The notes beneath the pieces were generated by a model. It did not search any database and was not told the origin of the DNA. It saw only the letters and a program-made list of their open reading frames with translations. The position numbers and the translations under genes are program-made. This document shows, piece after piece, positions 1,858-43,003 of a stretch of DNA of 64,000 nt; within the stretch, counting starts at the first letter, position 1; each line of letters starts with the position of its first letter. Source of the stretch: Candidatus Micrarchaeia archaeon (GTDB taxonomy: Archaea > Micrarchaeota > Micrarchaeia > Anstonellales > J096); NCBI GenBank assembly GCA_041500865.1, contig JBGQMY010000003.1, positions 6,728 to 70,727 of the forward strand, given 5' to 3'.

Positions 1858-2994
1858 TCATGCTGCAATGCATTCGTTGAATGATACCATGAACGCGTTC
1901 CCCCCAATCGCAAACAATTCCATTAATTTGAGGAACTCCGCGGTGTCGGTGTATCTGGTATATGGGTTGTTGGGGTCTGCGGCCTTGTGCAGGGCTGTCT
2001 TGCCGCGATTGTCCTTTGCGTTTATGAATTCCTTTAAGTCCCCGTCTGTTTTTGCGTATTCGTCTATTAGCAATTTGCAGAAGTTGGTTAATCCGTATTG
2101 TGCGGCCTCGTGCAGGGCTGTCTTGCCGCCTTTGTCTTTTGCGGCAATCAGTTCCTTTGCGTCCCCGCCGGCTTTTGCGTATTCCTGTATCAGCAGCAGG
2201 GCGACGTCCTGGATAAGCCCAGACCGCGGAGCATTGTGCAGGGCTGTCTTGCCGCCTTTGTCTTCTGCGGCAATCAGCTCCTTTGCGTCCCCGCCTGCCT
2301 TTGCGTATTCCTGTATCAGTAGGGAGCATAATTGTGCCTCTTTCGAAGCTGCGGCCTCGTGCAGGGCTGTATTGCCGCCCGTGTTCCTTGCGGTTATGAT
2401 TTCCTTTGCGTCTCCGCCGGCTTTTGCGTATTCGCCTATGAGCAGGATGCCGATTTCAATATGCCCTTCCCATGCGGCATGGTGCAGGGGTGTGGTGTCA
2501 TAGTAATTGTCCTTTGCGGCAATCAGTTCCTTTGCGTCCCCGCCGGCTTTTGCGTATTCGCCTATGAGCAATTTGCAGGTTTCGGCGTGTCCCTTTTCTG
2601 CGGCATCATGCAGGGCTGTACCTTTACACTTGTCCTTTGCGGCAATGAGTTCCTTTATGTCGCCGCCTGCCTTTGCGTATTCGCCTATGAGCAGGGCGCA
2701 GGTTTCGGCGTGCCCATCCAATGCGGCATGGTGCAGGGGCGTCTTGCCTTCATTGTTTCTTGCAAGGACTGAATGACGGTCCTTATCCTTTGCAGTCATG
2801 TCCGCGCCTGTCTTGATGAGCCGCAGCATCTTTGCATTGTTGCCATTCTTTGCGGCGCTGATAAGCGCATTGTCAAGCCTTCTTCCGGCAAACAGCCTCC
2901 TTATCGACCGCGCTGCCGATGCCAGCACCTCCCTTGTGCGCTCCAAATGTTTTTTGGGCTTGCTGGCCTGCCGTGGCCTATGCCGCTGCTCCAT
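1858..2994 (-). CDS. ankyrin-repeat protein with C-terminal …FMVSFNECIAA tail
   Basis: 378 aa; about 8 ANK repeats (TPLHHAAxxGH…LLI); upstream region nearly identical to that of 790..1734. Confidence 0.8.
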   Translation of the reverse strand: MEQRHRPRQASKPKKHLERTREVLASAARSIRRLFAGRRLDNALISAAKNGNNAKMLRLIKTGADMTAKDKDRHSVLARNNEGKTPLHHAALDGHAETCALLIGEYAKAGGDIKELIAAKDKCKGTALHDAAEKGHAETCKLLIGEYAKAGGDAKELIAAKDNYYDTTPLHHAAWEGHIEIGILLIGEYAKAGGDAKEIITARNTGGNTALHEAAASKEAQLCSLLIQEYAKAGGDAKELIAAEDKGGKTALHNAPRSGLIQDVALLLIQEYAKAGGDAKELIAAKDKGGKTALHEAAQYGLTNFCKLLIDEYAKTDGDLKEFINAKDNRGKTALHKAADPNNPYTRYTDTAEFLKLMELFAIGGNAFMVSFNECIAA

Positions 2995-3024
2995 GCCTTT
3001 GTTGTGCGGCGAAGGGAATAAAAA

Positions 3025-3597
3025 TCAGGAGGAAATGCACATGTCAAATGCGGAAAGGAACGTGGGGACCGGTTCTTTGCCGAATAGATTTTGCAGGCGT
3101 TCTATGCGCCCAAGATATGCCATGACCTGGTTTCTACCTACATGTCCAGCAACCATGCGCGCAGTGCGTTGGTTCTGGCTCTCTTCTATGTTGATGTCCG
3201 CGCCGCGCCCAGCCAAGAACTTGCATGCCTCAATGCGGCCCCAGATTGCCGTATATATAAGTGCCGTCCTGTTGTAATTGTCAGTTGCGTTTATATCCGC
3301 GCCTTTTTCCAGCAATAGCGCGCATGTTTCGGTGCGGCCTTCCCTTGCCGCCCACATCAAAGGAGTCATTATGCTGCTTTTTGACCTTGCCTCAATGTCT
3401 GCGCCCGCGTTGAGGAGCTGCTCGATTTTCATGGTTTCGCCATGATAAGCGGCATTGAAGAGCGCCTGGTCCAATTCATCCTGGGTTTTCGCAACGATTG
3501 CCGGCTTTTCAGGCTCTAGTTTGCGGAAGCAGATTCTGCGCAGTGTCTTGATTATTTTGGATTCCCGCATTTTTTCCAGTGCGGCCATTCCTGCCAT
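3025..3597 (-). CDS. ankyrin-repeat protein with C-terminal …FLSAFDMCISS tail
   Basis: 190 aa; 3-4 ANK repeats (TPLMWAAREGRTETCALLLEKGADINA…). Confidence 0.8.
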   Translation of the reverse strand: MAGMAALEKMRESKIIKTLRRICFRKLEPEKPAIVAKTQDELDQALFNAAYHGETMKIEQLLNAGADIEARSKSSIMTPLMWAAREGRTETCALLLEKGADINATDNYNRTALIYTAIWGRIEACKFLAGRGADINIEESQNQRTARMVAGHVGRNQVMAYLGRIERLQNLFGKEPVPTFLSAFDMCISS

Positions 3598-3672
3598 GTT
3601 CCGGGATTGCGCGATAGATTATAAAAAACCACCTAATGCGCCTTTTTAACACTTTTCATCCCAAACAAATGC

Positions 3673-5031
3673 ATGCAGGAAAAGCCAATCTTGAATAATG
3701 GCGAGCCTAAACAGGCAAGGCAGCCATTGCTGGACAAGGACGCGGCACAAAGGGCGCTGGACTGCGGCCTTATCAGCGCAGTGATGGACGGAAAAATCGA
3801 AAACGCAAAAAGCCTCGTTGAAATGGGCGCAAGCGTTGAGGCAAAGGACTATTGGGGAAAGACCGCGCTGATGTGCGCATGCATGCAGGGCCATGAGGAT
3901 GTCGCCTTGTTTCTTATTGATAACGGCGCCAGCATGAATTCAAAAGACAATGGCGGATGGACGCCGATGATGTTTGCGGCGAACAATGGATTCAACGAAA
4001 TAATAGGGATGCTTATTGACAAGGGGGCAGATGCCTATGCGGTGGACAACGCGGGGCACACTGCGCTGATGCACGCGGTTCACGAAGAGCGCATTGACGC
4101 CGCGAGGTTCATGACAAAAAAGGGATTTGGGCTGAAAACGCACAGGATAAGGTGGATTGACGACATACCTTATGCCGCAAGCGAAGGAAGGGAGCTGATG
4201 ATGAGGTTCCTTGTTGAAGAAGGGGCGAATATCGACGCAGTCGGAGGCATGTTCTCCACGACTGCGCTTGATTACGAGATAAGGTGCGGGAACTTCGGAT
4301 TGGCGAAGTTCCTTTTGGACCATGGCGCCAACATCGACAAAGGAGACAGCTTTGAAAAGACTGTGCTGATTCGCGCAGTGGAAAACCGCAACATCAAGGC
4401 GATGTCGTTCATCCTGGAAAACAAGGCAAATATTGACGCAAGGGAGCAGACCAAGAAGACTGCGCTGATGATTGCATGTGAAAATGGGCATATGGAAGCG
4501 GTCAGGCTCCTTGTCGAGAACAAGGCATCGCTGGATTTGGGGGCGATGACTGCGCTGCTGCATGCATTGCAGAATAGGCATGCTGAAGTCGCAAAATTCC
4601 TGATAAAGAGCGGCGCAGACGTGAATGCGAAGGACATCAACGGCTTGACTGCGCTCATGTGGGCGTCACCCTGGGCAGACACGAACATCGCCAGGATGCT
4701 TCTGGAAAAAGGCGCCGATGTGAATGCAAGCGACAAGGAAAGAAAGACCGCGCTGATGCACGCAGCCGAAGGCAGGAACATCGGAACCATAATGTTCCTG
4801 GTGGACAACGGGGCATGGATAAACACAAAGGACATATATGAAAGGAATGCCGTGGATTACGCGCTTAGATACGACAGCAGCAGGACGGACATGCGCGTGC
4901 CGTACACCGATTCGCAGGGCGACGGGATGGAAACTGCAAGATTCCTGAGGTTCGCCCACATGTTCCAGCCCCTTGTGGGGATAGGACCGCTGAGCGAGCT
5001 TGCGCTGGATTTCGCTGCATGCGTTTCGTAA
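3673..5031 (+). CDS. large ankyrin-repeat protein (about 12 repeats) with C-terminal …LALDFAACVS tail
   Basis: 452 aa; repeated 'KTALMxAxxxGHxExVxxLIxxGAxxNxKD' units. Confidence 0.8.
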   Translation: MQEKPILNNGEPKQARQPLLDKDAAQRALDCGLISAVMDGKIENAKSLVEMGASVEAKDYWGKTALMCACMQGHEDVALFLIDNGASMNSKDNGGWTPMMFAANNGFNEIIGMLIDKGADAYAVDNAGHTALMHAVHEERIDAARFMTKKGFGLKTHRIRWIDDIPYAASEGRELMMRFLVEEGANIDAVGGMFSTTALDYEIRCGNFGLAKFLLDHGANIDKGDSFEKTVLIRAVENRNIKAMSFILENKANIDAREQTKKTALMIACENGHMEAVRLLVENKASLDLGAMTALLHALQNRHAEVAKFLIKSGADVNAKDINGLTALMWASPWADTNIARMLLEKGADVNASDKERKTALMHAAEGRNIGTIMFLVDNGAWINTKDIYERNAVDYALRYDSSRTDMRVPYTDSQGDGMETARFLRFAHMFQPLVGIGPLSELALDFAACVS

Positions 5032-5277: not shown

Positions 5278-5413
5278 TGCCAAGGGGGGGACTCGAACCC
5301 CCGACCTCTAGATGGCCCAAAGCGTGCCTATCATCGCCGTTTTCCAACGGCTCAGCACTCACAAAAGCGTGTTTTATGAGTCTAGCGCTCTAAGCCGGCT
5401 GAGCTACCTTGGC
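5278..5413 (-). tRNA. tRNA-Met/CAT-anticodon tRNA with ~60-nt intron at canonical 37/38 position
   Basis: Minus strand reads GCCAAGG-TA-GCTCAGCCGGCTTAGAGC-G-CTAGA-CTCATAA-[intron]-TCTAG-AGGTC-GGGGGTTCGAGTCCCCC-CCTTGGC-A. Confidence 0.75.
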
Positions 5414-5815: not shown

Positions 5816-6661
5816 CTATTCGCACCTGAATGTCATGGTGTTGCAGAACATGCCGTGCGGGCAGTTGTCGTCGCTTGCGCACCTGCCCTGCTGGGGCACG
5901 CATGTGCTGTTAGGCGCGCAGTACTGCCAGTTGTCGCAGTCTGCGTTGCTGTAGCAGTTTCCGTTCATGACCGTGCACTTGTGCGTCCTGCTTGCGCAGA
6001 ACTCCAATGCATTGCAGTCGGAATGGGTGTCGCAGTATCCAAGCGCCGCCTTGCACTTGTGGGACGGCAGCTGGCACAGCTGCCACGTGCTGCATTCCTC
6101 GTCCCCGTTGCAGAAGCCGGACTTCGGCGTGCACATGTGCGTCTTCACTGTGCAGGTCTCCCACGCCTCGCAGTCGGTGTCCAGGTCGCACCTGTCGGCC
6201 ATCGGTATGCATCTTTGGAGCGTCGTGTTGCAGTACTGGTACGAGTTGCACTCCGTGTCCTTCGTGCACCTGCCCGCCTTCAGCTTGCAGACGTGGCCCT
6301 TGGTGTCGCAGGAATACAGCGGGTTTGTGCAGTCTTCCTCGACGTTGCACCTGCCTTCAGCCGCTATGCACTTGTTGGCGGTAGTGTTGCACCATTCCCA
6401 CAGGTTGCAGTCGGCGTCCTTGCCGCACAGGCCCTGCTTCGCTATGCAGGTGTGCGTCTTGCCGTCGCAGGTCTGCCAGCCCAGGCAATTGGAGGACGAG
6501 TCGCACATGCCAGGCCTTGACTCGCACGCCTTGTCCGTTATGTTGCATGACTGCCAGCTCTTGCATTGGTCGTCGCCCGTGCAGCTGCCCTGTATGCAGC
6601 CGAAAGAAAACATGAATGCCGTTGCTATTGCCGCAATCGCCAAAATTCCTATGTGCTTCAT
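5816..6661 (-). CDS. secreted cysteine-rich tandem-repeat protein (10 x ~26-aa four-Cys repeats)
   Basis: Signal peptide MKHIGILAIAAIATAFMFSFGC; repeats C-x5-C-x5-C-x6-C (CxxDxDCxxWQxCxxxxxxC); several NxS/T sequons; start chosen at Met12 of track ORF. Confidence 0.7.
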   Translation of the reverse strand: MKHIGILAIAAIATAFMFSFGCIQGSCTGDDQCKSWQSCNITDKACESRPGMCDSSSNCLGWQTCDGKTHTCIAKQGLCGKDADCNLWEWCNTTANKCIAAEGRCNVEEDCTNPLYSCDTKGHVCKLKAGRCTKDTECNSYQYCNTTLQRCIPMADRCDLDTDCEAWETCTVKTHMCTPKSGFCNGDEECSTWQLCQLPSHKCKAALGYCDTHSDCNALEFCASRTHKCTVMNGNCYSNADCDNWQYCAPNSTCVPQQGRCASDDNCPHGMFCNTMTFRCE

Positions 6662-6694
6662 CAAAAATACACCCTTGCTTAGATTTTTACACAA

Positions 6695-6955
6695 ATGTTT
6701 TTAATGGTTTGGAATGGAGTTGGTAATATGCTTTACAGGATACCCATGGATAGGGGCGCATTCAGCGGCAAACTGTTCTACCTTGATAAGGATACGGACG
6801 CGCCGTACTGCAAACAGCACGGGGCCATGAACGTCGTAACCGTCGTAAGCAAGAATGGAAAAAAGTACCTGTGGTACAGGTGCCTCGTCTGCCACATAGG
6901 GGTCGTTTACGACAAGGATAACAAGACAAACCAGGGCTGGGCCGAGGCGAGGTAG
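6695..6955 (+). CDS. small Zn-ribbon-like protein (Cys/His pairs)
   Basis: 86 aa (or 75 aa from Met at 6728); YCKQHG…CLVCH; first gene of three co-directional adjacent/overlapping ORFs. Confidence 0.4.
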   Translation: MFLMVWNGVGNMLYRIPMDRGAFSGKLFYLDKDTDAPYCKQHGAMNVVTVVSKNGKKYLWYRCLVCHIGVVYDKDNKTNQGWAEAR

Positions 6956-7354
6956 ATGGACGCTGAAGGCATGATGAAGAAGCTCGACGCTTTGAAAATC
7001 AAATTCAGCGTTGTCGGAAGCTACGCGCTCATGGCAAACGGCTACAAGGTCAAGCCCAACGACGTTGACATCATAGTTGATAAGAAAGATGTTGAAAAGG
7101 CGAAATCCGCGCTCTCGGAGTTCGGGGCAGAGGCGGAAGTCTACGAAGGGACGCCAAAATCAAGGGTATTCACTCCGCAAGAGTACAAGGAGCTGTTCCT
7201 TTCAAAGTTCACCAACGACGACCTCATGATAGAGAAGCTCGCAAGGCACGCGGTTGACGAGCCGAGGCTGCTCGCGCTTTTTGAGGGAACGGAAATTATG
7301 TTCGTACTTGAAAGCATGAAAAAGGATATTGAACGGAAGCTTGCGAAAAAATGA
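6956..7354 (+). CDS. minimal nucleotidyltransferase (Pol-beta superfamily, MNT-like)
   Basis: 132 aa; 'VVGSYALMANG…PNDVDIIV' = hG[GS] + DxD NTase signature; start abuts stop of the upstream ORF. Confidence 0.55.
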   Translation: MDAEGMMKKLDALKIKFSVVGSYALMANGYKVKPNDVDIIVDKKDVEKAKSALSEFGAEAEVYEGTPKSRVFTPQEYKELFLSKFTNDDLMIEKLARHAVDEPRLLALFEGTEIMFVLESMKKDIERKLAKK

Positions 7355-8103
7355 GCGCCCTGGACTGGATAGCTTTGGCCATTGCCGGAATATACTCCAA
7401 GCTGCTTTCACTTGTCCAGCACCTTGGCACGCCGCTGCACGAGTCATGCCATTTTGTCGCCGCGTCGCTCGCCGGCCTAAGGGTCAGTGAGTTTGTGCCG
7501 TATTACGCGCTTTCCAAGGACAGGAATGCGCTGAAGGCGCAGGGCGTACTGGGCTATGTCAGGCACGAGAAGGCAAGGGACGAGGCAGTCAACATAATAG
7601 TCGGCGCATCGCCCCTGCTTGCGCTTTGTTTCGTGATACTTCTTGCTGACGCATACCTTGCAGACATGTACGGGAAGGCGCTTGTCAGCATAGTCGCGCT
7701 CGTTTTCCTCACGCCCTCGCGTAAGGATACGTTTGAGGACTTCTCTGACGTGGGGGCCACGATCATGAACATTCCCCTCATAATATTCATAAGGCTCGTT
7801 GGCCTGCTTTTCAACTCAAACGTCTTGCTGGCGATGGCGTTCCACGTTTTGCTGGCAATAGCGGTCCTGCTCCTTGTCATTGCCATGAAAACGCTTGTCG
7901 TCGCGTTCCTGTTCGCGTCGCTCCTCACGCTGCTTTCGTACAGGATGGCAAACGGCATATTGCTGTTCATTTCCAAGATGCTGTTTTACCTGACATTTCC
8001 GCTGTCAACCATTTTCTGGGCCGCGTGCGCAATATCTTATTATTACCTTGGGACAGACTATTTCAGCGCGATAATCGGCTATGTCCACGACATCTGGCCG
8101 TAA
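7351..8103 (+). CDS. polytopic membrane protein with HExxH motif (putative membrane metalloprotease)
   Basis: 250 aa; 'LHESCHFVAASLAG' then ≥5 hydrophobic helices; ATGA start/stop overlap with the NTase gene. Confidence 0.5.
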   Translation: MSALDWIALAIAGIYSKLLSLVQHLGTPLHESCHFVAASLAGLRVSEFVPYYALSKDRNALKAQGVLGYVRHEKARDEAVNIIVGASPLLALCFVILLADAYLADMYGKALVSIVALVFLTPSRKDTFEDFSDVGATIMNIPLIIFIRLVGLLFNSNVLLAMAFHVLLAIAVLLLVIAMKTLVVAFLFASLLTLLSYRMANGILLFISKMLFYLTFPLSTIFWAACAISYYYLGTDYFSAIIGYVHDIWP

Positions 8104-11675: not shown

Positions 11676-12779
11676 TCATACGGCTAATTCCTTGGCAAAT
11701 AGCCTATTGAATCTTTCCACGACTCTTTTCCTGAAATTATAGCTATTTGCAAATCTGGCATAAGCAAGCCAGCCTTCCAGGCTTTTCACTATTTCTTCCC
11801 TGTTCATCTCTCCTTTATCGCATTTCCGTTTGAACATGTCAAGGCGCTCCCAGATTCTTCTGGCATTGCTCTTCTTGAGAAGCCGGTACCCATGAAAAAT
11901 CCTGAAGCCAAGAAATGCTATGCCCCGTTCCAATGGAATAATGCTGGACTTTTCAGGATGGAGCCTTATCTTGAGCCGGTATGCCAGAAACTCGCTTATT
12001 TCAGCGTTCCACATTTCAAGCATTTTCCTGTCCCTGTGCAGAATCACGAAATCATCCACATAGCGGATGTAATATCTGGCCCCAAGCCGCTCCTTTGCAA
12101 AATGGTCGAATCCGTTCAGGTATAGATTGGCAAAGAATTGCGAGGTCAGGTTTCCAAGGGGCATCCCTTTCCCATGAACTTCAGCTTTGTGGTTTGCCAA
12201 TATCATTCTTACCAATTGCATAATATCCGGATCCTTTATTTTACGGCTAATCATCTCCAATAGGATTTCATGTTCAACTGTCGCAAAATAATGCAGAATG
12301 TCCGCCTTGAGGGCATATCCGCAGCAAACGGATTCTTCATCGCTAGGCTCTTTTTCTGCTTTTGGCTTGCAGAAAGAGACCGCGCGCATGAACCGCTCCA
12401 GTCTCCGTATCGCATTATGCGTTCCCTTGCCTTTCCTGTTGGCAAATGAGTCAAAGATGAAATCCTTTTCAAAAATGGGCATTATGACGTTGCATAATGC
12501 ATGGTGCACAACGCGGTCCCTGAAATGGGACGCGCTTATTTTTCTGGTCTTTGGGTCCCTTACGAGGAATACAGTTGGCGGGCGAGGCGAATAGGCAAAT
12601 GCCTTCAGCTCGGATTCCAATTGCCTGAGATTATTTTCAAGATTGGATTCGAACTCAATTACATAATCCTTCAGCGTTTTCCTTTTTCTGGCTTTCTGAA
12701 ATGCAAGCTTAAGGTTTTCATAGGAGCAAACCTGCGGATAAAGATGCCTGTAGGATTTCATGGGTTTCGCCAAGCGCAC
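11676..12779 (-). CDS. diversity-generating retroelement (DGR) reverse transcriptase
   Basis: 367 aa; RT motifs incl. DGR-specific 'LGNLTSQFFANLYLNGFD' (replaces QG of intron RTs) and 'YIRYVDDFVI' (YxDD); TR lies immediately 5'; GTG at 12779 or ATG at 12761. Confidence 0.85.
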   Translation of the reverse strand: MRLAKPMKSYRHLYPQVCSYENLKLAFQKARKRKTLKDYVIEFESNLENNLRQLESELKAFAYSPRPPTVFLVRDPKTRKISASHFRDRVVHHALCNVIMPIFEKDFIFDSFANRKGKGTHNAIRRLERFMRAVSFCKPKAEKEPSDEESVCCGYALKADILHYFATVEHEILLEMISRKIKDPDIMQLVRMILANHKAEVHGKGMPLGNLTSQFFANLYLNGFDHFAKERLGARYYIRYVDDFVILHRDRKMLEMWNAEISEFLAYRLKIRLHPEKSSIIPLERGIAFLGFRIFHGYRLLKKSNARRIWERLDMFKRKCDKGEMNREEIVKSLEGWLAYARFANSYNFRKRVVERFNRLFAKELAV

Positions 12780-12790
12780 AGATAAATGCC

Positions 12791-13050
12791 CCTAGGGTGC
12801 AAGCCCAAGTCATTCCGAACGCATTGGACGGCCTGTAGTTCGCGTTGACGTTCTGCCTGTTGTTGCCGTTGTTGTTGACGTTGCGGACCAGAAGGCCTCA
12901 AGAGTAACCCGTCTGCCACAATGGCACTTTCGTGCCAACACCGCCGCTTCACGCTTTCAATCCATGATTTACTCAATGTCGCGGCTGAATCCCATGTCTG
13001 GCTTTAACCAGCACTGCAGACAGGTGTGTGGCCTAGGCTTGCACCCTAGG
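12791..13050. repeat. 15-bp perfect inverted repeats (cctagggtgcaagcc / ggcttgcaccctagg) bracketing TR plus ~135-nt spacer
   Basis: 12791-12805 is the exact reverse complement of 13036-13050; could form a long-range stem enclosing the TR RNA. Confidence 0.5.
12809..12898 (-). repeat. DGR template repeat (TR)
   Basis: ~90 nt homologous to 13315..13404; coding-strand reads …CGC AAC GTC AAC AAC AAC GGC AAC AAC AGG CAG AAC GTC AAC GCG AAC TAC…; all differences from VR are at TR adenines. Confidence 0.75.
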
Positions 13051-13076
13051 AATAGGGAAAAGGATGGAAAGCTTAT

Positions 13077-13988
13077 TTAAAGCGCTTTCCCTACCGCATC
13101 CAGGAATTCCCTGATTGGCGCTACGATCTGGGCGTCGATTATGCCAGGCATCCTGCCAACAGCGCTTACAGCCCTATTATATGCGGCTTTCAGCTCATCA
13201 GCCGAGATGCCGGGCACTTTGATAATCGTCTCTTTTTCAGCCGGTTTTCCTGACTGAACATTAGAGGCAAGAAGCGCCTGGATTTTTTCGGTGTCCCCTT
13301 CGGGGACTTCCAACGCCACCCCGAACGCACCGGACGGCCCGAAGTACGCGTAGACGCCCTGCCTGCCGTAGCCGAGGTCGTCGACGACGCGGACCAGAAG
13401 GCCCACATATGAAGAACCATTCAGCCTCCAAAGATATCTTGCATCCGGGCTTTGCGGCACCTTGTCTCCATGCGGAACGCCTGTTTCCTTATGCGGCATG
13501 TACAAGCCATCAGGACCTGGGAATTCTGGAACCGGTATCAGCCTGTCTTTTGAAATGTCCAAAACCATTGAATCTCCGTCTTTCTGGAAATCTTTTGAGG
13601 TTAGACCCAGTGCCACAAGCGCAACGTTCTTTTCGCCCTTATAATCCCCTGTTGTCGGCAAAACTATCCTTGAACCGTCTCCTGCGGAAAAGACTATCTC
13701 CTTTCCCAGTCTAACGCCTGGCTTTTCATAGGCGATTGAGGCGTCAACAGCGAAAGGCGTCATTGGAACCAAGCTTCTCCATGTCGCTCCAACGTTAAGC
13801 GCAACATCCGCTGTGTTATGGGATATGACTAGGCAATTGGTTCCATGCACATTGTTGAATTCCTCAACTAAAGGATGGGCATCAAAAAGCTTTGTTGTTC
13901 CGCTGTTCCTTAGAATCAGTATGTTCTTCTTTTGTCCGTTAGCCTCTAACTTTATCAGTTCCTTTCCAGCAATTTGGATTTGTGACAT
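13077..13988 (-). CDS. DGR target protein (variable protein; uncharacterised family, paralog of 59364..60158)
   Basis: 303 aa; contains the VR at aa ~196-225 (…VRVVDDLGYGRQGVYAYFGPSGAFG…); adjacent to TR-RT on same strand. Confidence 0.75.
   Translation of the reverse strand: MSQIQIAGKELIKLEANGQKKNILILRNSGTTKLFDAHPLVEEFNNVHGTNCLVISHNTADVALNVGATWRSLVPMTPFAVDASIAYEKPGVRLGKEIVFSAGDGSRIVLPTTGDYKGEKNVALVALGLTSKDFQKDGDSMVLDISKDRLIPVPEFPGPDGLYMPHKETGVPHGDKVPQSPDARYLWRLNGSSYVGLLVRVVDDLGYGRQGVYAYFGPSGAFGVALEVPEGDTEKIQALLASNVQSGKPAEKETIIKVPGISADELKAAYNRAVSAVGRMPGIIDAQIVAPIREFLDAVGKAL
13293..13307 (-). promoter_or_regulatory. GC hairpin 7 nt downstream of VR 3' end (IMH-associated stem-loop)
   Basis: gtcccc-ttc-ggggac: 6-bp GC stem, 3-nt loop, positioned as in characterised DGRs. 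Confidence 0.5.
13315..13404 (-). repeat. DGR variable repeat (VR) inside target gene
   Basis: Matches TR except ~20 positions, each where TR coding strand has A (TR AAC -> VR GTC/GAC/CTC/TAC/GGC/TTC codons). Confidence 0.75.
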
Positions 13989-17224: not shown

Positions 17225-17324
17225 GGGCTCGTAGCTCAGTCGGTAGAGCGACGGTCTTATATGGCGCGTTCTAGCACAAACCTAAGTTAGCCGTAGGTCC
17301 TGGGTTCAAGTCCCAGCGGGCCCA
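17225..17324 (+). tRNA. intron-containing tRNA, apparent anticodon TAT (Ile)
   Basis: GGGCTCG-TA-GCTCAGTCGGTAGAGC-G-ACGGT-CTTATA-[~27-nt intron]-A-GCCGT-AGGTC-CTGGGTTCAAGTCCCAG-CGGGCCC-A. Confidence 0.7.
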
Positions 17325-35948: not shown

Positions 35949-38900
35949 ATGGCAGCCCTCAAAAACAAGCTACGAAGAGCAGTCGTCTACACGATGATTG
36001 CCGCTAACGCCGGTAATGCGAGCCCGGCATGGCTGCCGCGACATGAAAGATTGGGTGAAACAATGGCTGAAACAACCGTGAAGGGCGTTGAAAAGAAGGA
36101 CGAGGATGCCAGGCTCAAGAAGGGCGCGAAAATGCTTTATGACACGTACAAGAAGCTGTATCCCAAGGTCGATGAGAAACAATACTACATGTACCTTACG
36201 GCTTTCGGCAAAAAGCTGAACATATACAACGTGGAGGCCTTTAACACAAGCATCGGGGACGTAAGGAACATAGGGAATGGCCAGATGACCTTCATGGCGA
36301 TAAAAGAACTTGAAAGGCAGCGCTTGGAGAAGAAGGAGGCTGAAAGCTCCGGAAAGAGCTTTGTCCAGATGCAGAAGGAAAAAGAAACAAGGAGAGCGGA
36401 AACTGCCGGGCAAAGGGCAAAGAAAAGGGAGGCAGTCAAAGAAGAAGTTAGTAAGGTGATTACAGGCGGCGAGATAACGCCAGAGACCAAGCCTGCAAAG
36501 GTAACGGCTCCGGCCGTCATTGCCGGAAAAGGCATATTCGGGCAGACGCAAGGCGTTTTCCAGACGGAACAGAACGTCCTCAAAGGAAGCGACGGCAACG
36601 CAATGCTTGACAGCAGGGGCGCGGTCCAATACGCATATCCTTCAAACATGGCGTCGCTGCAGTCGCTTGGAGTGGTAGATTACAGCGCGCTGAAGGAAGC
36701 CACGGGAAATGATTTCATCGACCAGCTCAGGAAGAGCGAGGCAAAGGGCGGAACGGTCGAAGAAAGGGGCCAGAGGAGCTTCGAGACAACGGCAAGGATG
36801 ATAGGCGCGATAGTGCTTTACAACTCATTCGCATTCGCGGACAAGGCCGGGACAGTCAAGAAAAACCAGCTGAAGGATTATTGCGGCGACGACGGATACG
36901 CGGAAAACCTCGGGCGCGTGCTTTCGGCAAAGCCGCTGAGGAACCAGGGGCAGTTCATAGGCGAAGTGACGTCATTCATAGGGGCATACGTAAAGAACGG
37001 AAAGCTGACCGAGATAAACGGGGAAGGCAAGGACGAGAAGGGCAAGTCCAACGTGGGCATGTATGTCTATTCAATAGCCGCAATCGGCTCCGCATACACG
37101 CAGCGCGTGATAGGCGAAACGTTCGAGAGCCAGATGTCGTACCTCCAGGAAAGGAAGAAGGCCGCGGAGACGCAGAAGGCGGGGCTGGAAGGCCAGGTCA
37201 AGGAAGAGGCAAAGAGGCCCGCTGCCGCGCAGAGAGCCAAAAAATTGGCAGGTGAGGACGCGGAGACGCAGCTGAAAAAGGCTGATGCAGAAATACAGAG
37301 CATAACCGACATGACGGACAGCATCAGCAGCTACAGCTGGTACTACAAGAAGCCCATGACCGTGTCCGAGCTTTACAAAAGGCACAGGGACGAGGACAGG
37401 AAAAGGCTGACAAGCCTGAACGACTATGTCGGGGGCCTAAACATACCGCAAAGGATAAAGAGGCCGTTCCAGGACGCGCTTGAAAACGAAAAGACGCAGA
37501 TGGTGCTGCTCCAGATGGCCATAGAGGAGGCAAACCCCGAAGGGAGGATGACGCTTGCGGAGCTCAGGGAAAAAGGCAACATCTGGAGAAACTACAAGAC
37601 GCTTGTCACGCACAAACTCAAGGAGATAGCGACTTACAAGCTCAACAAGGGCCAAAGACTGATTTACGTGATGCTCAACAACAGGTACGGGGACCTCGTT
37701 GATGCCATAGAGGCAAAGCTGGGGCCTGAGGAGACGGCCAGGTTCATAGTGGACCTTGCAGACCCGTCGCAGGCAAAGAAGCAGGGCATGAGCTACGACG
37801 ACTACATAAGGGCCACGCTCAAGGATAAATGGATAAATGGAGGCATTTCCCCTGTAAAGGATGCAAAGGGCAGCATCCTAAAGGACCCAAGGGGCAACGT
37901 CATAAAAAGAGGCAGAAGCTGCCTTGATGATTACAGGAGCGGGTTCAACAGCAGCTACGGGCAAAAATCCGGCAGCCTGGACAGCCAAAGGTTTCCGGAC
38001 AAGCTGGTTGCGTCGCTTGTCATAGACCACAGGATAACGCAGGCGGAGCTGGACTTCCTGATTGCGAACAGGGGCGACATGAAGCCGGAGGAGGCGCTCA
38101 ACGCATTCAACGCCAAGCTCAACGACGCAAAGAAGAATTTCAACGAGAAGTCATATTCCACGGTAAAGCGCATGGTGGACGAGGCGCAGGGTCTCATAGG
38201 GTTTGACAAGGCGTATTATGAGGAGTTCAGGGACATAATACTTGTGAGGCTGGCCTTGATAGACATGACAAACCGGGCAACCCAGCGCACGTCAAGCCTT
38301 ACGCTGGACGGAATAATTGAAGGCAACCTGTCCGGGGTCAGGGCATTCGGGGCAAAGACGGCGGCGCTCGTTGCCAAGGTTGACGAGATTGCGCCTTTGG
38401 AGAAGATGCCGGACAACATAACCGGCGACGCCAAAGGGGTGCTGCTCCAGAGGGCGCGCACGCAGAGAATCAACGCGTACATAGAGCTTTTCAACAACGA
38501 GTTCTTCACGCTGAACGATGAAAGATATACCAAGATAACGGTGCAGAGGCTGAACGACTTCAAGCTCAGGCTTGACACGTGGGAGGAGGTGCTCAAAACG
38601 ATGAAGGAGGACGACCCGTACCACATCGCGAAGGACACTGTGCTCAGGGCCGGATGCATCCGGACGCTTGAGTCCATGAAGCAAAGGCTTGACGCAATCA
38701 TGAAGGAGGTCGGCGACAAAGGCATTGACCTGAGCGAAATAAAGGACCCTGGCGACAGGTTCCTGCTGGACCTTGTCATAAACGGAAGGGTCATCATCGC
38801 AGGAATCAACGGGTTCAGGTATTACGACAACGTCGCAACCGTGGACAGGCAGGGCTTCATACCCGTGATATTCTACTTCCTGAACAACATACAGCTCAAC

Positions 38901-41399
38901 GCCGAGGAGAACAGGTCGTACCTTGACCATGTGCTCAAAATGCCGGAAGGCAATGGCATAGACGTGTGGGAAGCGCCTGAAACAATAGCGCAGCAGCTGG
39001 AGACGGAAAGGAGCAACCGCATAGAAAACATGAGGTCGGAAGGCTGGAAGACGATAATGGGAAGCAGCGACAAGGCAACCGAGATGTACAGGATGCTGGG
39101 GTTCCAGCAGGCGTATGACTATTACTCCTCCTACCTGAAAAAGAACAAGGACAGCACATACGATTACAGCGACGCATCAGCCCTTGACGCTGAGCTGGAG
39201 CGGATTTTCGGAAAGGACATGCTCGACAACGTGAACCTGTCTGTAAAGTTCGCCATGAACATGTACACACCCAATAGGAATGTCTCCAAATACGACCTTG
39301 ACAGGCTGTCTACCCGGTTCAAGATGGTCCTGGCATCCAACCTTGTCCTGGAGGCGCCGTACTACGACTTGAGCAACACGGCAAAGCAGGGCTCCAAGAG
39401 CATTCCCGTTTCCGTGACAAAGAAGGACGGGGCAAAGGAGAGTGTCAATATCCAGTACCACGACAACATGGTGCAGAGATGGATAGAGGGCTACCGCAGC
39501 GCAAGGATTGGCGGGATATCCGTTGACAAGGACATGATTGAGGGCTTCATAGGCAGCATAGCGCAATGCAAATGGGCAGCGACGCTCAAGCCTGGCCAGT
39601 ATTCCATAACGTTCGAGAACGACCTGCACGAATTGAGGTCTTTCGACGTCACGGTAAGCAAGGTCGGTGGCGACATGAAAGGCGCGGCAGCCAACATAAA
39701 GATAGAGCCGATGTCCACGCTTGAGGACCTGCTGAAGACGCCCGGCGGATTCAGGGCGTACGAGGGCGACAGGATAGTCATGAGGAACAAGGCCGACAAC
39801 AGCGTGGCGCTGGCAACAAAGTCCAATTTCGGGGTTTTGATGGTGGCGAGCGCAAAGGTCGGCGGAAGGGGATTCGAGAATGCCGTAAACCAGGTGTCGC
39901 TGATGAACGACAACCTCGTGCCTGACGGAAGGCTTGAGGAGGGAACGCAGCCCGCATCGTTCTGGACAGGGCTGTACTTTGCCGTTACGAAGAAGGAGGC
40001 CATGTCATTCATCTCAAACAGGCAGATGGCGCTGTACGACATCGCGGCGACCTTCAGGCCAATCCGCGACATCAGGCCCGAGGTGCCTGTCAAGGTGACA
40101 AAAGTCCTTGGCAAGGAAACGCTGGACTTTGCGGCGCTCATAGGCGCCCCAAGCGATGCCGGAATATCCACCACGTGGGTGGATGCCGGCGGAGCGGTGC
40201 ACAACTGGTTCTCGGAGATGGCTGAAGGAAAACTGACAATAGACGAGAATGGGAACCTTTCTGCGCAGATAATGTCAAGGGCGACAGGAACGCAGCTCAT
40301 GCTCGGCGAGCTCAAAACGGAGCTTGACAGGCTTGGCTACACCGACGGCACGCCGCAAAGGGCCATCATACTGCAGCACCTGTTCGGCACAGGGCCGTAC
40401 AACGACAACATGGTAATCGAGGTCGTGGCGACCCAGCAGGGCAACAGGATATTCATAGTGACTAAAGGCGCGCAGAACATGGCACAGGCGGAGATAGGCA
40501 TTGAAATAGACAGGCAGACCATATCGGAAATGAGGTACGGATACCTCACCGACAGGCTAAGGCTCTTCATAGCGACGCAGACGCAGCTGAAGCTCGGGAA
40601 CGAGATAATAAACGTAAGGGTTGAGCTTGGGAAGACCGCAGCCGATTTCCAAAGCATGAAGAGGTTCAAGGACATCAAGACTGCGATAGTGAACGCATAC
40701 CTCAGCTCGAACATATTCGGCGCGGGATGGAGCACGGTGCTTTCTGAAAGCGGGAATGCGGTGACAGTGCAGCCGTACCTTGTGGCTTACCTGGAGCACA
40801 TGATGCCCAACGACCTGCAGAGGATAATCGAGACCGGCGGCGGAGTTTCCGGAATCCTGGAGACCGCAAATGCGGAATTCGGCGCCACCCCGCAGCTGAC
40901 AGGCATAACAGTCGGGCAAGGGGGGGACTGGATGGTAACCCCGAGCCTGAACCTGTACCAGAGATGGTTCACGGGAAGGCATTTTGACCTGTACCAGAGC
41001 GCTTCGGTGCACTACAGGTTCCCCACAGCCGGTCTCGTGGACAGGGTAAGCAAGGGGCATCTTGGGGGAACCTGGGGGGGTGGGGGGAACCTCGGATTCG
41101 ACTACATAATAGACAGGAACTGGAGGATGGGCCTTGGCGGAGGGTATGAATACGCCCCAATCTCCATACAGGCGCCTGTAAGCGTGTTCAGCTCCAGCGC
41201 CAGCATATCGTTCAGGAACAGGCTTTCGCTTGAGGTGATGGCCAACTACCAGCTGGACAAGGACTGGGGAACGGAGAACCTGCCTGTGCTGGGCCGCGGA
41301 GTCGTCGCAGGCAAGGCCGCGCTTGTCTACAACATCGGAAGGCTTGACTTCACCCCAAAGGAAAAGGGAACAGCAGCGAAGAAGGGCGGTAAGAAATGA
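35949..41399 (+). CDS. giant protein (1816 aa) of unknown function; Gly-rich C-terminal region
   Basis: Single uninterrupted ORF; possible RR-containing N-terminal signal (KLRRAVVYTMIAANAGNA); C-terminal 'GGTWGGGGNLGFDYIIDRNWRMGLGGGYEY'; stop overlaps start of next gene. Confidence 0.7.
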   Translation: MAALKNKLRRAVVYTMIAANAGNASPAWLPRHERLGETMAETTVKGVEKKDEDARLKKGAKMLYDTYKKLYPKVDEKQYYMYLTAFGKKLNIYNVEAFNTSIGDVRNIGNGQMTFMAIKELERQRLEKKEAESSGKSFVQMQKEKETRRAETAGQRAKKREAVKEEVSKVITGGEITPETKPAKVTAPAVIAGKGIFGQTQGVFQTEQNVLKGSDGNAMLDSRGAVQYAYPSNMASLQSLGVVDYSALKEATGNDFIDQLRKSEAKGGTVEERGQRSFETTARMIGAIVLYNSFAFADKAGTVKKNQLKDYCGDDGYAENLGRVLSAKPLRNQGQFIGEVTSFIGAYVKNGKLTEINGEGKDEKGKSNVGMYVYSIAAIGSAYTQRVIGETFESQMSYLQERKKAAETQKAGLEGQVKEEAKRPAAAQRAKKLAGEDAETQLKKADAEIQSITDMTDSISSYSWYYKKPMTVSELYKRHRDEDRKRLTSLNDYVGGLNIPQRIKRPFQDALENEKTQMVLLQMAIEEANPEGRMTLAELREKGNIWRNYKTLVTHKLKEIATYKLNKGQRLIYVMLNNRYGDLVDAIEAKLGPEETARFIVDLADPSQAKKQGMSYDDYIRATLKDKWINGGISPVKDAKGSILKDPRGNVIKRGRSCLDDYRSGFNSSYGQKSGSLDSQRFPDKLVASLVIDHRITQAELDFLIANRGDMKPEEALNAFNAKLNDAKKNFNEKSYSTVKRMVDEAQGLIGFDKAYYEEFRDIILVRLALIDMTNRATQRTSSLTLDGIIEGNLSGVRAFGAKTAALVAKVDEIAPLEKMPDNITGDAKGVLLQRARTQRINAYIELFNNEFFTLNDERYTKITVQRLNDFKLRLDTWEEVLKTMKEDDPYHIAKDTVLRAGCIRTLESMKQRLDAIMKEVGDKGIDLSEIKDPGDRFLLDLVINGRVIIAGINGFRYYDNVATVDRQGFIPVIFYFLNNIQLNAEENRSYLDHVLKMPEGNGIDVWEAPETIAQQLETERSNRIENMRSEGWKTIMGSSDKATEMYRMLGFQQAYDYYSSYLKKNKDSTYDYSDASALDAELERIFGKDMLDNVNLSVKFAMNMYTPNRNVSKYDLDRLSTRFKMVLASNLVLEAPYYDLSNTAKQGSKSIPVSVTKKDGAKESVNIQYHDNMVQRWIEGYRSARIGGISVDKDMIEGFIGSIAQCKWAATLKPGQYSITFENDLHELRSFDVTVSKVGGDMKGAAANIKIEPMSTLEDLLKTPGGFRAYEGDRIVMRNKADNSVALATKSNFGVLMVASAKVGGRGFENAVNQVSLMNDNLVPDGRLEEGTQPASFWTGLYFAVTKKEAMSFISNRQMALYDIAATFRPIRDIRPEVPVKVTKVLGKETLDFAALIGAPSDAGISTTWVDAGGAVHNWFSEMAEGKLTIDENGNLSAQIMSRATGTQLMLGELKTELDRLGYTDGTPQRAIILQHLFGTGPYNDNMVIEVVATQQGNRIFIVTKGAQNMAQAEIGIEIDRQTISEMRYGYLTDRLRLFIATQTQLKLGNEIINVRVELGKTAADFQSMKRFKDIKTAIVNAYLSSNIFGAGWSTVLSESGNAVTVQPYLVAYLEHMMPNDLQRIIETGGGVSGILETANAEFGATPQLTGITVGQGGDWMVTPSLNLYQRWFTGRHFDLYQSASVHYRFPTAGLVDRVSKGHLGGTWGGGGNLGFDYIIDRNWRMGLGGGYEYAPISIQAPVSVFSSSASISFRNRLSLEVMANYQLDKDWGTENLPVLGRGVVAGKAALVYNIGRLDFTPKEKGTAAKKGGKK

Positions 41400-43003
41400 G
41401 AATGCTGAAACTGGCGTTTGCGATTTGCCTGCTCGCCGGCGTTTCGCTGGCGCTGCAGTGGGGGGGAAGCGCGACCAGCAACGTAAGGTACGACGGCGGA
41501 AGCATAGCGACTTCCTGCATTGGCGAGCCAAGGCAGGACCCGTTCGACCTTTACGCCAACATACTGCATACGCTAACGGTCAACGCAAGCCTGACGCAGA
41601 ACGGCGTTGAGCCGGCCGAGTTTTCCTCAGGGCCGGCAAACCTGGACATAAGGGTGACGACGAACACCAGCATAGGCGCCATACTCGCGTCCTCATCGCT
41701 TAATTTCAACCAGAATGCGCAGCCTTCTCCTGCCGCAGCGAACCTTGCGTTTGACAATGCGGAATACAGCTACATAAGCAGCAAGTATCCGGTCTGCATA
41801 AACGAGGACCCCTCAAGGCCCGACGACAGGGGCGTGCATTACCTCAACTACATTTACGGCAGCGCAACGTGCAACCATGCAATGAGTGCCGCGGACGCAG
41901 TAACCGTCAATGTCGGATACAAGCCGTGCATGGCGGGGCCTGTCAGCGGCATGGGCAAGGGATACATGTACTGCACCGGCGGAACGCTCAAGGTCAATGG
42001 GCTGAACGCAGGCACGTTTTCATCCAGCCAGCAGTCATTCAGCACGACGGTAAATCTCGCAACAGGCACGACATCCATTCCCGTGTCAGTCACATACCAG
42101 TGCTACTTCGTTTTGGAAAAATACCTCAACACCGGGGACGTCCAGCCGATTGAACACCTGATATACCAGATGCCTGGCGGAGTGCCGATAACGCAGACTG
42201 TCAACATACCCATAAACAGGGTCAATCCGCCGCAAATCAACCTCGTGCCGTTCATAACGCTGAACAACACCAACTATTATACCGGGACGCATGTAACCGT
42301 AAACAAGGTCAATACGAAATTCGACATATCGTTCTTTGTCAACAGGACGGACAATCTCGTGCTGATAGAGACGCCATACCTGAACTGGTCAATAACGTCA
42401 ACGCCGCCCGAGCTAATCACCAGGACATACAGGGACTTCAAGCTCGTCCCTCCGCTCACTGTAGGGACGCCGCACCATCTGGTTCCGTCAGGCACAACGC
42501 CGCCCATAACAATAACGGTCTGCAGGCCAGGATTTGACACTGACACTATCACGCTGAACATCAACCAATGGAGGTCAATAATAGAGAGCAGCTACGACGA
42601 CAACAGCATAACAATAACGTTTGACTGCAGCAGCCTGGACAATCCCATGTGCACGTTCAACCCAAGCACCCTGATAACGTATCCTGGCCAGACGAAGATG
42701 ACGAACATGAGCTGCTACGACAAGAGGACTATGGAGCCCATGGACTGCCCCTCATACAGCGATGCGTCAATAACCCACGCAAACGGGGAATTTTCGAGCC
42801 ATTACCTACCCCTGGCATGGACGTATGACATCAGCGAGAATGCGACCAACCTGGTCAATGTAACCGCAATAGGAGGCACGAACCCTGACGAGGGGACTTA
42901 CAGCGACACTGTCACGGCGACGTTCCCTGGCAGCTACGTCCAGCCGTTCAGTTGCAAATTCAACCTTGAATGGGGAAGGCCCGACTGCAGGTATTACATG
43001 TAG
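41396..43003 (+). CDS. secreted Cys-rich, N-glycosylation-sequon-rich protein, translationally coupled to the giant ORF
   Basis: Signal peptide MRMLKLAFAICLLAGVSLALQW; ~20 Cys; >15 NxS/T sequons; ATGA overlap with 35949..41399. Confidence 0.7.
   Translation: MRMLKLAFAICLLAGVSLALQWGGSATSNVRYDGGSIATSCIGEPRQDPFDLYANILHTLTVNASLTQNGVEPAEFSSGPANLDIRVTTNTSIGAILASSSLNFNQNAQPSPAAANLAFDNAEYSYISSKYPVCINEDPSRPDDRGVHYLNYIYGSATCNHAMSAADAVTVNVGYKPCMAGPVSGMGKGYMYCTGGTLKVNGLNAGTFSSSQQSFSTTVNLATGTTSIPVSVTYQCYFVLEKYLNTGDVQPIEHLIYQMPGGVPITQTVNIPINRVNPPQINLVPFITLNNTNYYTGTHVTVNKVNTKFDISFFVNRTDNLVLIETPYLNWSITSTPPELITRTYRDFKLVPPLTVGTPHHLVPSGTTPPITITVCRPGFDTDTITLNINQWRSIIESSYDDNSITITFDCSSLDNPMCTFNPSTLITYPGQTKMTNMSCYDKRTMEPMDCPSYSDASITHANGEFSSHYLPLAWTYDISENATNLVNVTAIGGTNPDEGTYSDTVTATFPGSYVQPFSCKFNLEWGRPDCRYYM

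Follow-up and report, generated by a model that had tools for sequence, protein, structure and literature searches.

We report that a Cys-repeat gene located on the minus strand at positions 5816-6661 of a 64,000-nucleotide stretch of DNA from a Candidatus Micrarchaeia archaeon (contig JBGQMY010000003.1; the whole stretch is hereafter called the window) is real, under purifying selection and conserved across the phylum. Its 281-aa product belongs to a phylum-wide, well-defined subfamily of a catalogued but uncharacterized repeat type, Pfam DUF5885 (PF19232), and does not represent a new kind of system. We propose, with about as much confidence as doubt, that this protein is a lipid-anchored, disulfide-stapled extracellular rod, which would provide the Micrarchaeota envelope with a stalk or spacer of fixed length. 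An earlier reading made from the sequence alone (the sequence-only reading) had described it as a secreted protein built from ten tandem four-Cys repeats.

The Cys-repeat gene and its relatives

The open reading frame (ORF) runs from an ATG at 6661 to a stop codon at 5816-5818, and a TTG located 11 codons upstream of this ATG does no more than lengthen the ORF. The product starts with MKHIGILAIAAIATAFMFSFGC, followed by ten units of the form C-x5-C-x5-C-x6-C-x6. Unit parsing confirmed the ten four-Cys units that the sequence-only reading had placed after a signal peptide, together with their consensus CxxDxDCxxWQxC...C....G., and the profile hidden Markov model consensus of 240 orthologous units is CDSDADCDSWQVCDLSTHKCVAKPGY. 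The same reading had counted 40 cysteines, whereas the precursor carries 41 (14.6% of the protein), namely C22 and the 40 of the ten-unit array, which starts at C27. The array repeats a 5,5,6,6 pattern of gaps from which only units 4 and 9 deviate, and all 39 Cys-Cys gaps of the mature part measure 5-6 residues, compared to a mean of 4.9 and a maximum of 14 such gaps in shuffled sequences (n=20,000). The protein contains four N-x-S/T sequons (N40, N92, N145, N251), in agreement with the several noted earlier, of which N40, at the tip of the first hairpin, is the only conserved one (Table 1).

The array had been called almost perfect, which holds for its Cys spacing and not for its sequence, as unit-to-unit identity is only ~15% for non-Cys residues and 49% for nucleotides. 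Tandem Repeats Finder detected no DNA-level repeat in the gene, and no second copy of the motif was found elsewhere in the 64-kb window. The regularity resides in the Cys framework only. All 41 Cys codons are TGC, the third codon positions have a GC content (GC3) of 84%, and the gene as a whole reaches 59% GC compared to 52% for the window. Three long ORFs on the opposite strand were correctly taken as spurious by the sequence-only reading, since the conserved homologues all use the minus-strand frame. Their cause is the codon bias (GC3 of 84%, exclusive use of TGC for Cys) and not, as had been supposed, repetitive DNA.

An identical protein is recorded in an assembly of the Sequence Read Archive (SRA). 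Word-indexed homologue searches returned no match with the single protein and three proteins with a profile, and an exhaustive HMMER search was required; conducted against 1.84 billion representatives, it yielded 190 matches at E<=1e-3, including 14 at E<=1e-30. Furthermore, a scan for related loci covering one genome per prokaryotic species, with a 4-sequence alignment as the query, found a full-length relative in at least 35 species-level archaeal genomes, nearly all labeled Micrarchaeota, Micrarchaeia or Anstonellales. Three loci (L008, L015 and L037), as well as some aspartyl-tRNA synthetase matches, bear the label 'Candidatus ainarchaeum', a name absent from the copy of the taxonomy consulted; if this is a garbled 'Iainarchaeum', the family would reach a second DPANN phylum.

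Of the orthologues that were parsed, 25 have ten units, 41-42 Cys (any 42nd Cys being in the signal peptide) and 278-311 aa. The window protein fits the definition of this Micrarchaeota family, with its signal peptide, G-C lipobox, ten units, ~280 aa and an end located 1-2 residues past the last Cys. In an alignment of 24 ten-unit proteins including the window protein (A3), all 41 Cys are invariant and none is displaced, at 33-39% identity to the window protein. Also invariant are the Gly preceding C22 and several Gly, Trp and Asp positions; R157, D161 and D163 are invariant or nearly so, and the Asp preceding the second Cys of a unit (D137, D161, D163, D266) is nearly invariant. Particularities of units 4, 9 and 10 are shared by the orthologues, which also lack Trp at the unit 4 position (CDPxFExC), have a unit 9 hairpin shorter by one residue and end in a similar way (..THxC-x).

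Variation in repeat number, which the sequence-only reading had proposed to look for, was found between lineages: a clade of about six orthologues has 12 units, 49 Cys and 339-364 aa, and single cases have 45 and 51 Cys. In contrast, no such change was seen in the only close relative, L042, a metagenome contig whose protein is 93% identical over 249 gap-free residues, with no Cys substitution and a ratio of nonsynonymous to synonymous substitution rates (dN/dS) of 0.19; this contig ends after the third Cys of unit 9, and the comparison extends up to there. The 12-unit clade and the 45- and 51-Cys cases are found at L005, L006, L007, L017, L024 and L032 (also L028 and L034), and an attempt to map the added units gave no clean assignment. 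The identical SRA record, the 93%-identical relative with its dN/dS of 0.19, the HMMER matches and the 35 genomes together establish that the gene is real.

In the main clade, same-position identity of non-Cys residues is 0.41-0.48, compared to 0.19-0.21 between positions, and about 70% of the units have their own position as best match. As the positions of this clade keep their own sequence, the unit array is old, collinear and not recently homogenized. The window protein reaches a same-position identity of only 0.26, against 0.20 between positions, and its best match lies at the same position in 26% of cases (10% by chance), with a clear positional signal in units 1, 6 and 9 only. The signal is strongest in unit 6 (0.45 vs 0.23 for the other positions), followed by unit 1 (0.33 vs 0.18). 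Three other divergent lineages likewise keep the framework and show little positional signal. These comparisons suggest that the window protein is a divergent member of the family.

A Pfam scan gave the window protein 39.2 bits against DUF5885, for a gathering score of 33.2 (E=7e-10). DUF5885, described in Pfam as a family of unknown function, is the only curated model that the window protein passed. It also matched all 24 orthologues (E<=0.01, best E=8.2e-19) with scores of 31-68 bits around the cut-off, and at least 33.2 bits were reached in 8 of the 10 proteins scanned individually. The matches do not cover the full model: they fall on positions ~16-109 of 265, about a third of it, with the best stretches always inside ~13-111 and nothing reported past 111. 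Because the match is partial and the scores lie near the cut-off, this model was not built from the ten-unit lipoprotein of Micrarchaeota, although the type of Cys repeat that it describes is evidently the same. The sequence-only reading, which did not recognize a known repeat family and suggested a Pfam scan to find one, needs to be amended accordingly: there is a catalogue entry and a formal match above its gathering score, but the match is partial, DUF5885 is itself uncharacterized, and the entry explains nothing. Literature searches on DUF5885/PF19232 and on Cys-rich or surface lipoproteins of Micrarchaeota and other DPANN archaea returned nothing relevant, except a preprint on a different repeat.

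Export, predicted fold and possible role

The N-terminus, composed of a positively charged MKH and the hydrophobic stretch IGILAIAAIATAFMFSF, has the features of a signal peptide and aligns with the signal peptides of all orthologues. The hydrophobic signal peptide terminates in x-x-G-C in every relative whose alignment includes the N-terminus, and G21 and C22 are invariant in the aligned relatives (15/15 and 24/24). The lipobox is defined as [L/V/I]-3 [A/S/T/V/I]-2 [G/A/S]-1 C+1, and in Haloferax its Cys bears a thioether-linked archaeol in an AliA/AliB-dependent manner (PMC12462473). AliA is present in DPANN archaea 'with some gaps' (PMC12462473). About 17 of the 24 orthologues fit the full lipobox (L-A-G-C, L-S-G-C, with A-A-G-C being near), and most have the general form L-[A/S/L/F]-G-C. 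C22, as the +1 Cys of the lipobox, accounts for the odd 41st cysteine and leaves exactly 40, an even number. These observations suggest that the protein is exported, as noted earlier, and probably lipid-anchored rather than freely secreted. A lipid anchor on Cys22 is likely but not certain because the box of the window protein, S-F-G-C, is degenerate and fits the pattern at positions -1 and +1 only.

An extracytoplasmic location is very likely, and the usage of the module in other proteins is consistent with it. Among the 150 best representatives, the 26-residue unit occurs in arrays of 2 to 35 units, and a lipobox-like N-terminus was found in 99 by a crude pattern match. Many relatives are large high-GC proteins, presumably bacterial, and the few taxonomic labels are Myxococcales or Deltaproteobacteria. 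In them, the array is followed by RCC1 propellers, by thrombospondin type 3 repeats (TSP3), by a von Willebrand factor A (vWA)/zinc-protease-like region or by a recurrent domain of about 315 aa that Pfam does not match, and P0002 and P0042 have C-terminal transmembrane anchors with the repeats outside. Such usage before extracellular domains or transmembrane anchors argues for an extracellular placement and fits a stalk or spacer. The DUF5885 model captures no more than part of a much larger repeat superfamily, to which apparently bacterial surface lipoproteins also belong.

Two architectures recurred among these relatives. P0003, P0007, P0010, P0011, P0016, P0017, P0021, P0094, P0122 and about 40 more high-GC, presumably bacterial proteins share a lipobox, 3-16 Cys units and a recurrent C-terminal domain of ~305-335 aa without a Pfam match. 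A longer paralogue type, in which a lipobox and about 7-10 units are followed by a non-Cys C-terminal domain, is represented by P0009 (622 aa; L002, 8001-9869) and P0020 (381 aa, partial; Micrarchaeota; L003, 1966-3107). Both genes lie directly downstream of an AXE1/alpha-beta hydrolase gene, and the P0009 gene is followed in L002 by one encoding a 1579-aa protein without a Pfam match.

The single-sequence model of AlphaFold2 (AF2) reached a predicted local distance difference test score (pLDDT) of 65, and its Foldseek matches were uninformative. With a 40-sequence family alignment, AF2 gave a mean pLDDT of 90.2 and a predicted template modeling score (pTM) of 0.59, the five models being at 89-90. 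The structure prediction suggested in the sequence-only reading thus returned an array of hairpin modules, preceded by a helix at residues 4-19 in the signal peptide. Units 1-9 are modeled alike: a 3-10/helical turn forms at D-x-D before the second Cys (C2), then comes a beta-hairpin with C3 and C4 on its strands, and a bridging residue precedes the next C1. A regular modular hairpin fold is therefore predicted with high confidence. Sequence and family-profile searches of the PDB gave no match. The top global Foldseek matches were the LRP2/megalin and tumor necrosis factor receptor (TNFR) arrays, with E=8e-5 to 1e-3, template modeling (TM) scores of 0.10-0.18 and root-mean-square deviations (rmsd) of tens of angstroms. 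The best local ones were small two-disulfide hairpin modules (3fju_B, probability 0.90; Draxin, 0.85; Dkk4-N).

All four Cys are kept in 1,110 of the 1,111 units detected across the family. Consequently, units with a paired loss of Cys, sought to infer the pairing of the disulfides, were not found among them. The array starts at a C1 and ends at a C4, so that each unit can close on itself, and we consider it highly probable that disulfides form. Of the two scaffolds put forward by the sequence-only reading, the extracellular disulfide-rich one is the most plausible, given the even number of Cys, the near-complete retention of the four Cys of each unit, the AF2 modules and the transmembrane anchors and extracellular domains of the relatives. 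Its metal-binding counterpart fared poorly, as the units lack CxxC and CxC clusters and have Trp-containing hairpins.

In the mechanism that we propose, a Sec-type signal peptide would carry the precursor across the membrane, Cys22 would be lipidated (with a thioether-linked archaeol, by analogy with Haloferax) and the signal peptide would be removed. The remaining 259 residues would fold outside the cell into ten 26-residue modules, each combining a short acidic 3-10 turn (CxxDxDC) and a Trp-containing beta-hairpin held by two disulfides, for a total of 20. The outcome would be a stiff, protease-resistant rod projecting from the membrane. Its role would most likely be structural, as a stalk or spacer of fixed length in the gap that separates the membrane from the S-layer, or where the cell touches its host. 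Lipidation, disulfide formation and connectivity, the rigidity of the rod and its spacer function are all steps that we infer. Many proteins of bacteria and archaea use the same module as a stalk placed ahead of other extracellular domains. Length is indeed fixed, with ten units in most species, 12 in one clade and no change in the L042 overlap. We place a structural spacer role, as opposed to a specific binding role, at an even chance or somewhat less.

Several points weigh against this proposal. The lipobox of the window protein is non-canonical (Ser at -3, Phe at -2), and 40 Cys would likewise be left if signal peptidase I were to cut instead, for example after IQG25. Both the disulfides and their pairing are inferred, and many Micrarchaeota inhabit anoxic groundwater or sediment. 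Foldseek and the PDB sequence and profile searches found no solved structure resembling the ten-unit array, which makes the rigid rod a prediction. No conserved envelope-related gene adjoins the orthologues, whose neighbors are housekeeping genes that differ between lineages. Because the window protein largely lacks positional signal, strict orthology is unproven, and we do not claim that a one-to-one relationship has been established. Finally, the position-specific identity of the main clade (0.41-0.48 vs 0.20) exceeds what a passive spacer needs and hints at binding surfaces.

This last point leads to the main rival, a surface-anchored adhesin or recognition protein whose unit-specific surfaces would dock, for example, an S-layer protein, glycans or the host archaeon that Micrarchaeota inhabit as episymbionts. 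The positions of the main clade keep their own sequence, with about 70% of the units matching their own position best, and units 4 and 6 are the most conserved. Divergent lineages, including that of the window protein, keep the framework only, which would fit co-evolution with different partners, and the weak Foldseek matches are mostly tandem Cys-rich receptors that bind ligands (LRP2, TNFR). However, those structural matches are too poor for a transfer of function (TM <= 0.18), Pfam and NCBIfam scans detected no ligand-binding domain or known adhesin family, no conserved partner gene lies nearby, and a dN/dS of 0.19 gives no sign of diversifying selection. We regard an adhesin as unlikely, albeit well ahead of the two weak rivals, metal binding and an inhibitor array.

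A metal-binding protein for extracellular buffering or sequestration, either through metallothionein-like thiolates or through Ca2+ held by the CxxDxDC turn, would agree with the 14.6% Cys content, the conserved Asp before C2 (D137, D161, D163, D266) and the nearest global Foldseek matches, which are arrays of the low-density lipoprotein (LDL)-receptor type, whose modules bind Ca2+. Conversely, the spacing of the Cys is a uniform 5-6 residues with no CxxC, CxC or CC clusters, the protein is exported with an even Cys count after the lipobox, its aromatic-containing beta-hairpins are confidently predicted without metal, and no metallothionein or LDL-A family was matched. This makes metal binding improbable.

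More improbable still is a multi-headed, knottin-like array of inhibitors or toxins, such as protease inhibitors guarding the cell surface. Small inhibitor-type modules do provide the best local Foldseek matches (3fju_B, probability 0.90, target TM 0.38), and squash trypsin inhibitors were found with the weaker single-sequence model, but these matches span ~65 columns with an rmsd above 6 A and an E value of 0.09 or worse. Furthermore, no inhibitor family was matched in sequence, the conservation profile reveals no loop resembling a reactive site, and the module lies widely N-terminal to unrelated domains, a stalk-like usage. That the locus is no gene, being instead a GC-rich artifact or the complement of a true gene among the three long overlapping plus-strand ORFs, is refuted by the 190 homologous representatives and 35 genomes that share the minus-strand frame, the invariant Cys of the 24 aligned orthologues, the dN/dS of 0.19, a Pfam score above the cut-off and a predicted fold with a pLDDT of 90.

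The disulfide-stapled stalk could also be thought of more boldly. The protein might be the phylum-wide founding member of an unsolved disulfide-rod fold that works as a fixed-length ruler or tether of 10 or 12 units, from membrane to S-layer or from symbiont to host, with position-specific surfaces docking defined partners. Its module would have passed between DPANN archaea and bacteria of the Myxococcota type, in which larger surface lipoproteins would use it as their stalk. We consider this extended version doubtful.

Attachment to other archaea is the way of life of DPANN archaea such as Micrarchaeota, and very little is known of the surface molecules with which they build their envelope or contact their host. 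The Cys-repeat protein occurs widely across the phylum, is strongly constrained and almost certainly lies exposed at the surface, and its confidently predicted structure has no solved relative. It offers practical handles, as a target of antibodies for cryo-electron tomography or immunolabeling, as a metaproteomics marker and as a substrate with which to probe, beyond the haloarchaea, the recently discovered lipoprotein pathway of archaea. Its relevance is chiefly to work on DPANN envelopes and archaeal lipoproteins; if merely a stalk, it would be an ordinary conserved hypothetical protein.

Features of the gene and its genomic surroundings

Table 1. Coordinates of the Cys-repeat gene, its units and the overlapping ORFs within the window.
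Feature	Position	Strand	Basis
Complete coding sequence, Cys-repeat lipoprotein precursor, 281 aa + stop	5816..6661	-	ORF list, translation
Signal peptide, aa 1-21 (MKH + hydrophobic IGILAIAAIATAFMFSF + G)	6599..6661	-	sequence reading, orthologue alignment, AF2 helix 4-19
Cys22 codon, +1 Cys of lipobox, predicted lipidation site	6596..6598	-	G21-C22 invariance
Array of ten four-Cys units, aa 27-280, 40 Cys	5822..6583	-	translation, unit parsing, alignment
Unit 1, aa 27-52, membrane-proximal	6506..6583	-	hairpin strands 37-40 and 45-48 (AF2)
Sequon N40-I-T42 in unit 1, at hairpin tip	6536-6544	-	conserved in 19/24 orthologues
Unit 2, aa 53-78	6428..6505	-	unit parsing
Unit 3, aa 79-104	6350..6427	-	unit parsing
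Unit 4, aa 105-131, 27 aa (C2-x6-C3), without Trp (CTNPLYSC)	6269..6349	-	unit parsing
Unit 5, aa 132-157	6191..6268	-	unit parsing
Unit 6, aa 158-183, best conserved (CDLDxDCxxW[QE]xC..KTHxC)	6113..6190	-	same-position identity, alignment
Unit 7, aa 184-209	6035..6112	-	unit parsing
Unit 8, aa 210-235	5957..6034	-	unit parsing
Unit 9, aa 236-260, 25 aa (C3-x5-C4)	5882..5956	-	unit parsing
Unit 10, aa 261-281, terminal; protein ends one residue past fourth Cys	5819..5881	-	unit parsing
Putative upstream region	6662..6704	-	read from sequence
Shadow ORFs 5855-6520, 5967-6704, 5992-6384	5855..6704	+	ORF list

The upstream region contains a putative Shine-Dalgarno-like GGGTG at 6670-6674 (-13 to -9 relative to the ATG) and putative A/T-rich TATA-like boxes, TAAAAAT at 6683-6689 and TTAAAAAC at about 6696-6703. 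The same region in L042 is identical except for one substitution in the Shine-Dalgarno-like motif (AGGTG), a sameness that is uninformative because L042 is too close a relative.

A tRNA gene (5278-5413) followed by three ankyrin-repeat genes lies downstream of the Cys-repeat gene, whereas small unannotated genes, a flavin mononucleotide (FMN)-dependent dehydrogenase gene and the PAC2 gene are located upstream in divergent orientation. None of these window neighbors adjoins the orthologues. At 22 other loci, an upstream haloacid dehalogenase (HAD) hydrolase gene is shared, with genes for apurinic/apyrimidinic (AP) endonuclease 2, a Ser/Thr kinase or a thiolase nearby. As the neighbors are housekeeping and lineage-specific, genomic context gives no functional clue.

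The window bears archaeal hallmarks, namely two tRNA genes with presumed long introns, NMD3 and the PAC2 proteasome-assembly protein. The tRNA genes (5278-5413, minus strand, 136 nt, and 17225-17324, plus strand, 100 nt), presumably intron-containing, were detected with Rfam and not with ARAGORN. The best named matches of the aspartyl-tRNA synthetase of the window (56-64% identity) are exclusively Micrarchaeota (Anstonellales, Micrarchaeia, Bilamarchaeaceae), and its relatives at 85-97% identity come from metagenome contigs only. NCBI taxonomy places the Micrarchaeota lineages in DPANN (kingdom Nanobdellati, phylum Microcaldota, class Micrarchaeia).

Other features of the window were recorded in passing. 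A complete diversity-generating retroelement occupies 11676-13988 on the minus strand. It comprises a reverse transcriptase gene (11676-12779; RVT_1, E=3e-17), a template repeat (12789-12897), an RNA matching Rfam RT-16 (12899-13050, 62.4 bits for a cut-off of 50) and a variable repeat of 109 nt (13295-13403), which lies close to the C-terminus of a 303-aa target ORF (13077-13988); the product of this ORF has no Pfam or NCBIfam match. Between the two repeats, 21 of the 29 mismatches replace a template A by another base in the target, and the rest cluster at the 3' edge of the repeat. The three adjacent ankyrin-repeat proteins (1858-5031; 378, 190 and 452 aa; Ank_2 E-values down to 5e-68) form a cluster unusual for an archaeon, which might have a bearing on host interaction. 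Two genes away from the Cys-repeat gene, 7351-8103 (plus strand) encodes a multi-pass membrane protein of 250 aa that carries an H-E-x-x-H motif (LHESCHF) and matched neither Pfam nor NCBIfam; it is a possible candidate for lipoprotein processing, as AliA or as the Tiki-like protease mentioned in PMC12462473. Finally, two successive ORFs of 1816 and 535 aa, both without a Pfam match, span 35949-43003 (plus strand), in a region of strong purine skew (AT skew up to 0.39, GC skew of 0.16 at 36-38 kb).

Comparison with known families and analogous systems

Beyond DUF5885, resemblances to described Cys-rich families are partial. Dickkopf_N (PF04706) matched units 9-10 with 18.3 bits (E=0.003), below its gathering score of 25, and was found in 4 of the 24 orthologues (best E=0.0024). 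The likeness to Dickkopf_N and Draxin lies in a sub-motif, C-x2-[DE]-x2-C-x5-C, whose third Cys is preceded by an aromatic residue, and the local Foldseek matches to Draxin (5z5k_B, probability 0.85) and Dkk4-N (5o57) reach a target TM of only 0.23-0.37. Dkk_N has its 10 Cys in one domain of ~50 aa and belongs to eukaryotic signaling proteins, whereas the window protein is built from a tandem four-Cys unit. This is a resemblance and not a membership. DUF7107 (PF23416) scored 10.6 bits with the window protein (E=0.75; cut-off 24.6) and was seen in 3 of the 24 orthologues, one of which reached the cut-off (L029, 25.2 vs 24.6 bits). Its matches span about two units against a 48-position profile, and this family is likewise uncharacterized. 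Neither the EB module (PF01683) nor furin-like repeats matched the window protein at E<=10 in Pfam; the EB module appeared only in the relative P0007, below threshold (19.2 vs 24.3 bits), and furin-like repeats were never matched in the Pfam scans.

Among the local structural matches, the Ascaris carboxypeptidase inhibitor (3fju_B) ranks best, with a probability of 0.90, a target TM of 0.38 and 67 columns. It is made up of two small domains in tandem, both of them beta-ribbons that contain two disulfides each. This inhibitor differs from the window protein in being an animal protein of two domains instead of ten, with an E value of 0.09, an rmsd of 6.3 A, 22% identity and no sequence relationship.

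A Cys-rich repeat named CysRRep adjoins signal peptides and precedes other domains in Neocallimastix and other eukaryotes, and searches for it matched Myxococcota too (bioRxiv 10.64898/2026.06.07.730663). CysRRep differs by its pattern, Cx6-9Cx5-7Cx8-11Cx7-8CC, with six Cys and a CC pair, and the Micrarchaeota in that preprint only matched non-repeat parts (bioRxiv 10.64898/2026.06.07.730663).

In overall design, the window protein is reminiscent of LDL-receptor class A and epidermal growth factor (EGF) arrays, such as LRP2/megalin, and of TNFR, where disulfide-stapled modules of ~25-40 aa form elongated extracellular arrays. A functional analogue may be found in the stalks of myxobacterial TraA, in which Cys-rich tandem repeats hold an outer domain away from the cell surface; TraA (NF033759) was the sole NCBIfam match, and a negligible one in sequence (E=0.1, 11 bits for a cut-off of 750). 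Although Braun's lipoprotein Lpp of bacteria is a coiled coil without disulfides and has no sequence or fold relationship with the Cys-repeat protein, it provides a working analogy for the stalk that we propose, as a lipid-anchored rod whose fixed length sets the spacing of the envelope.

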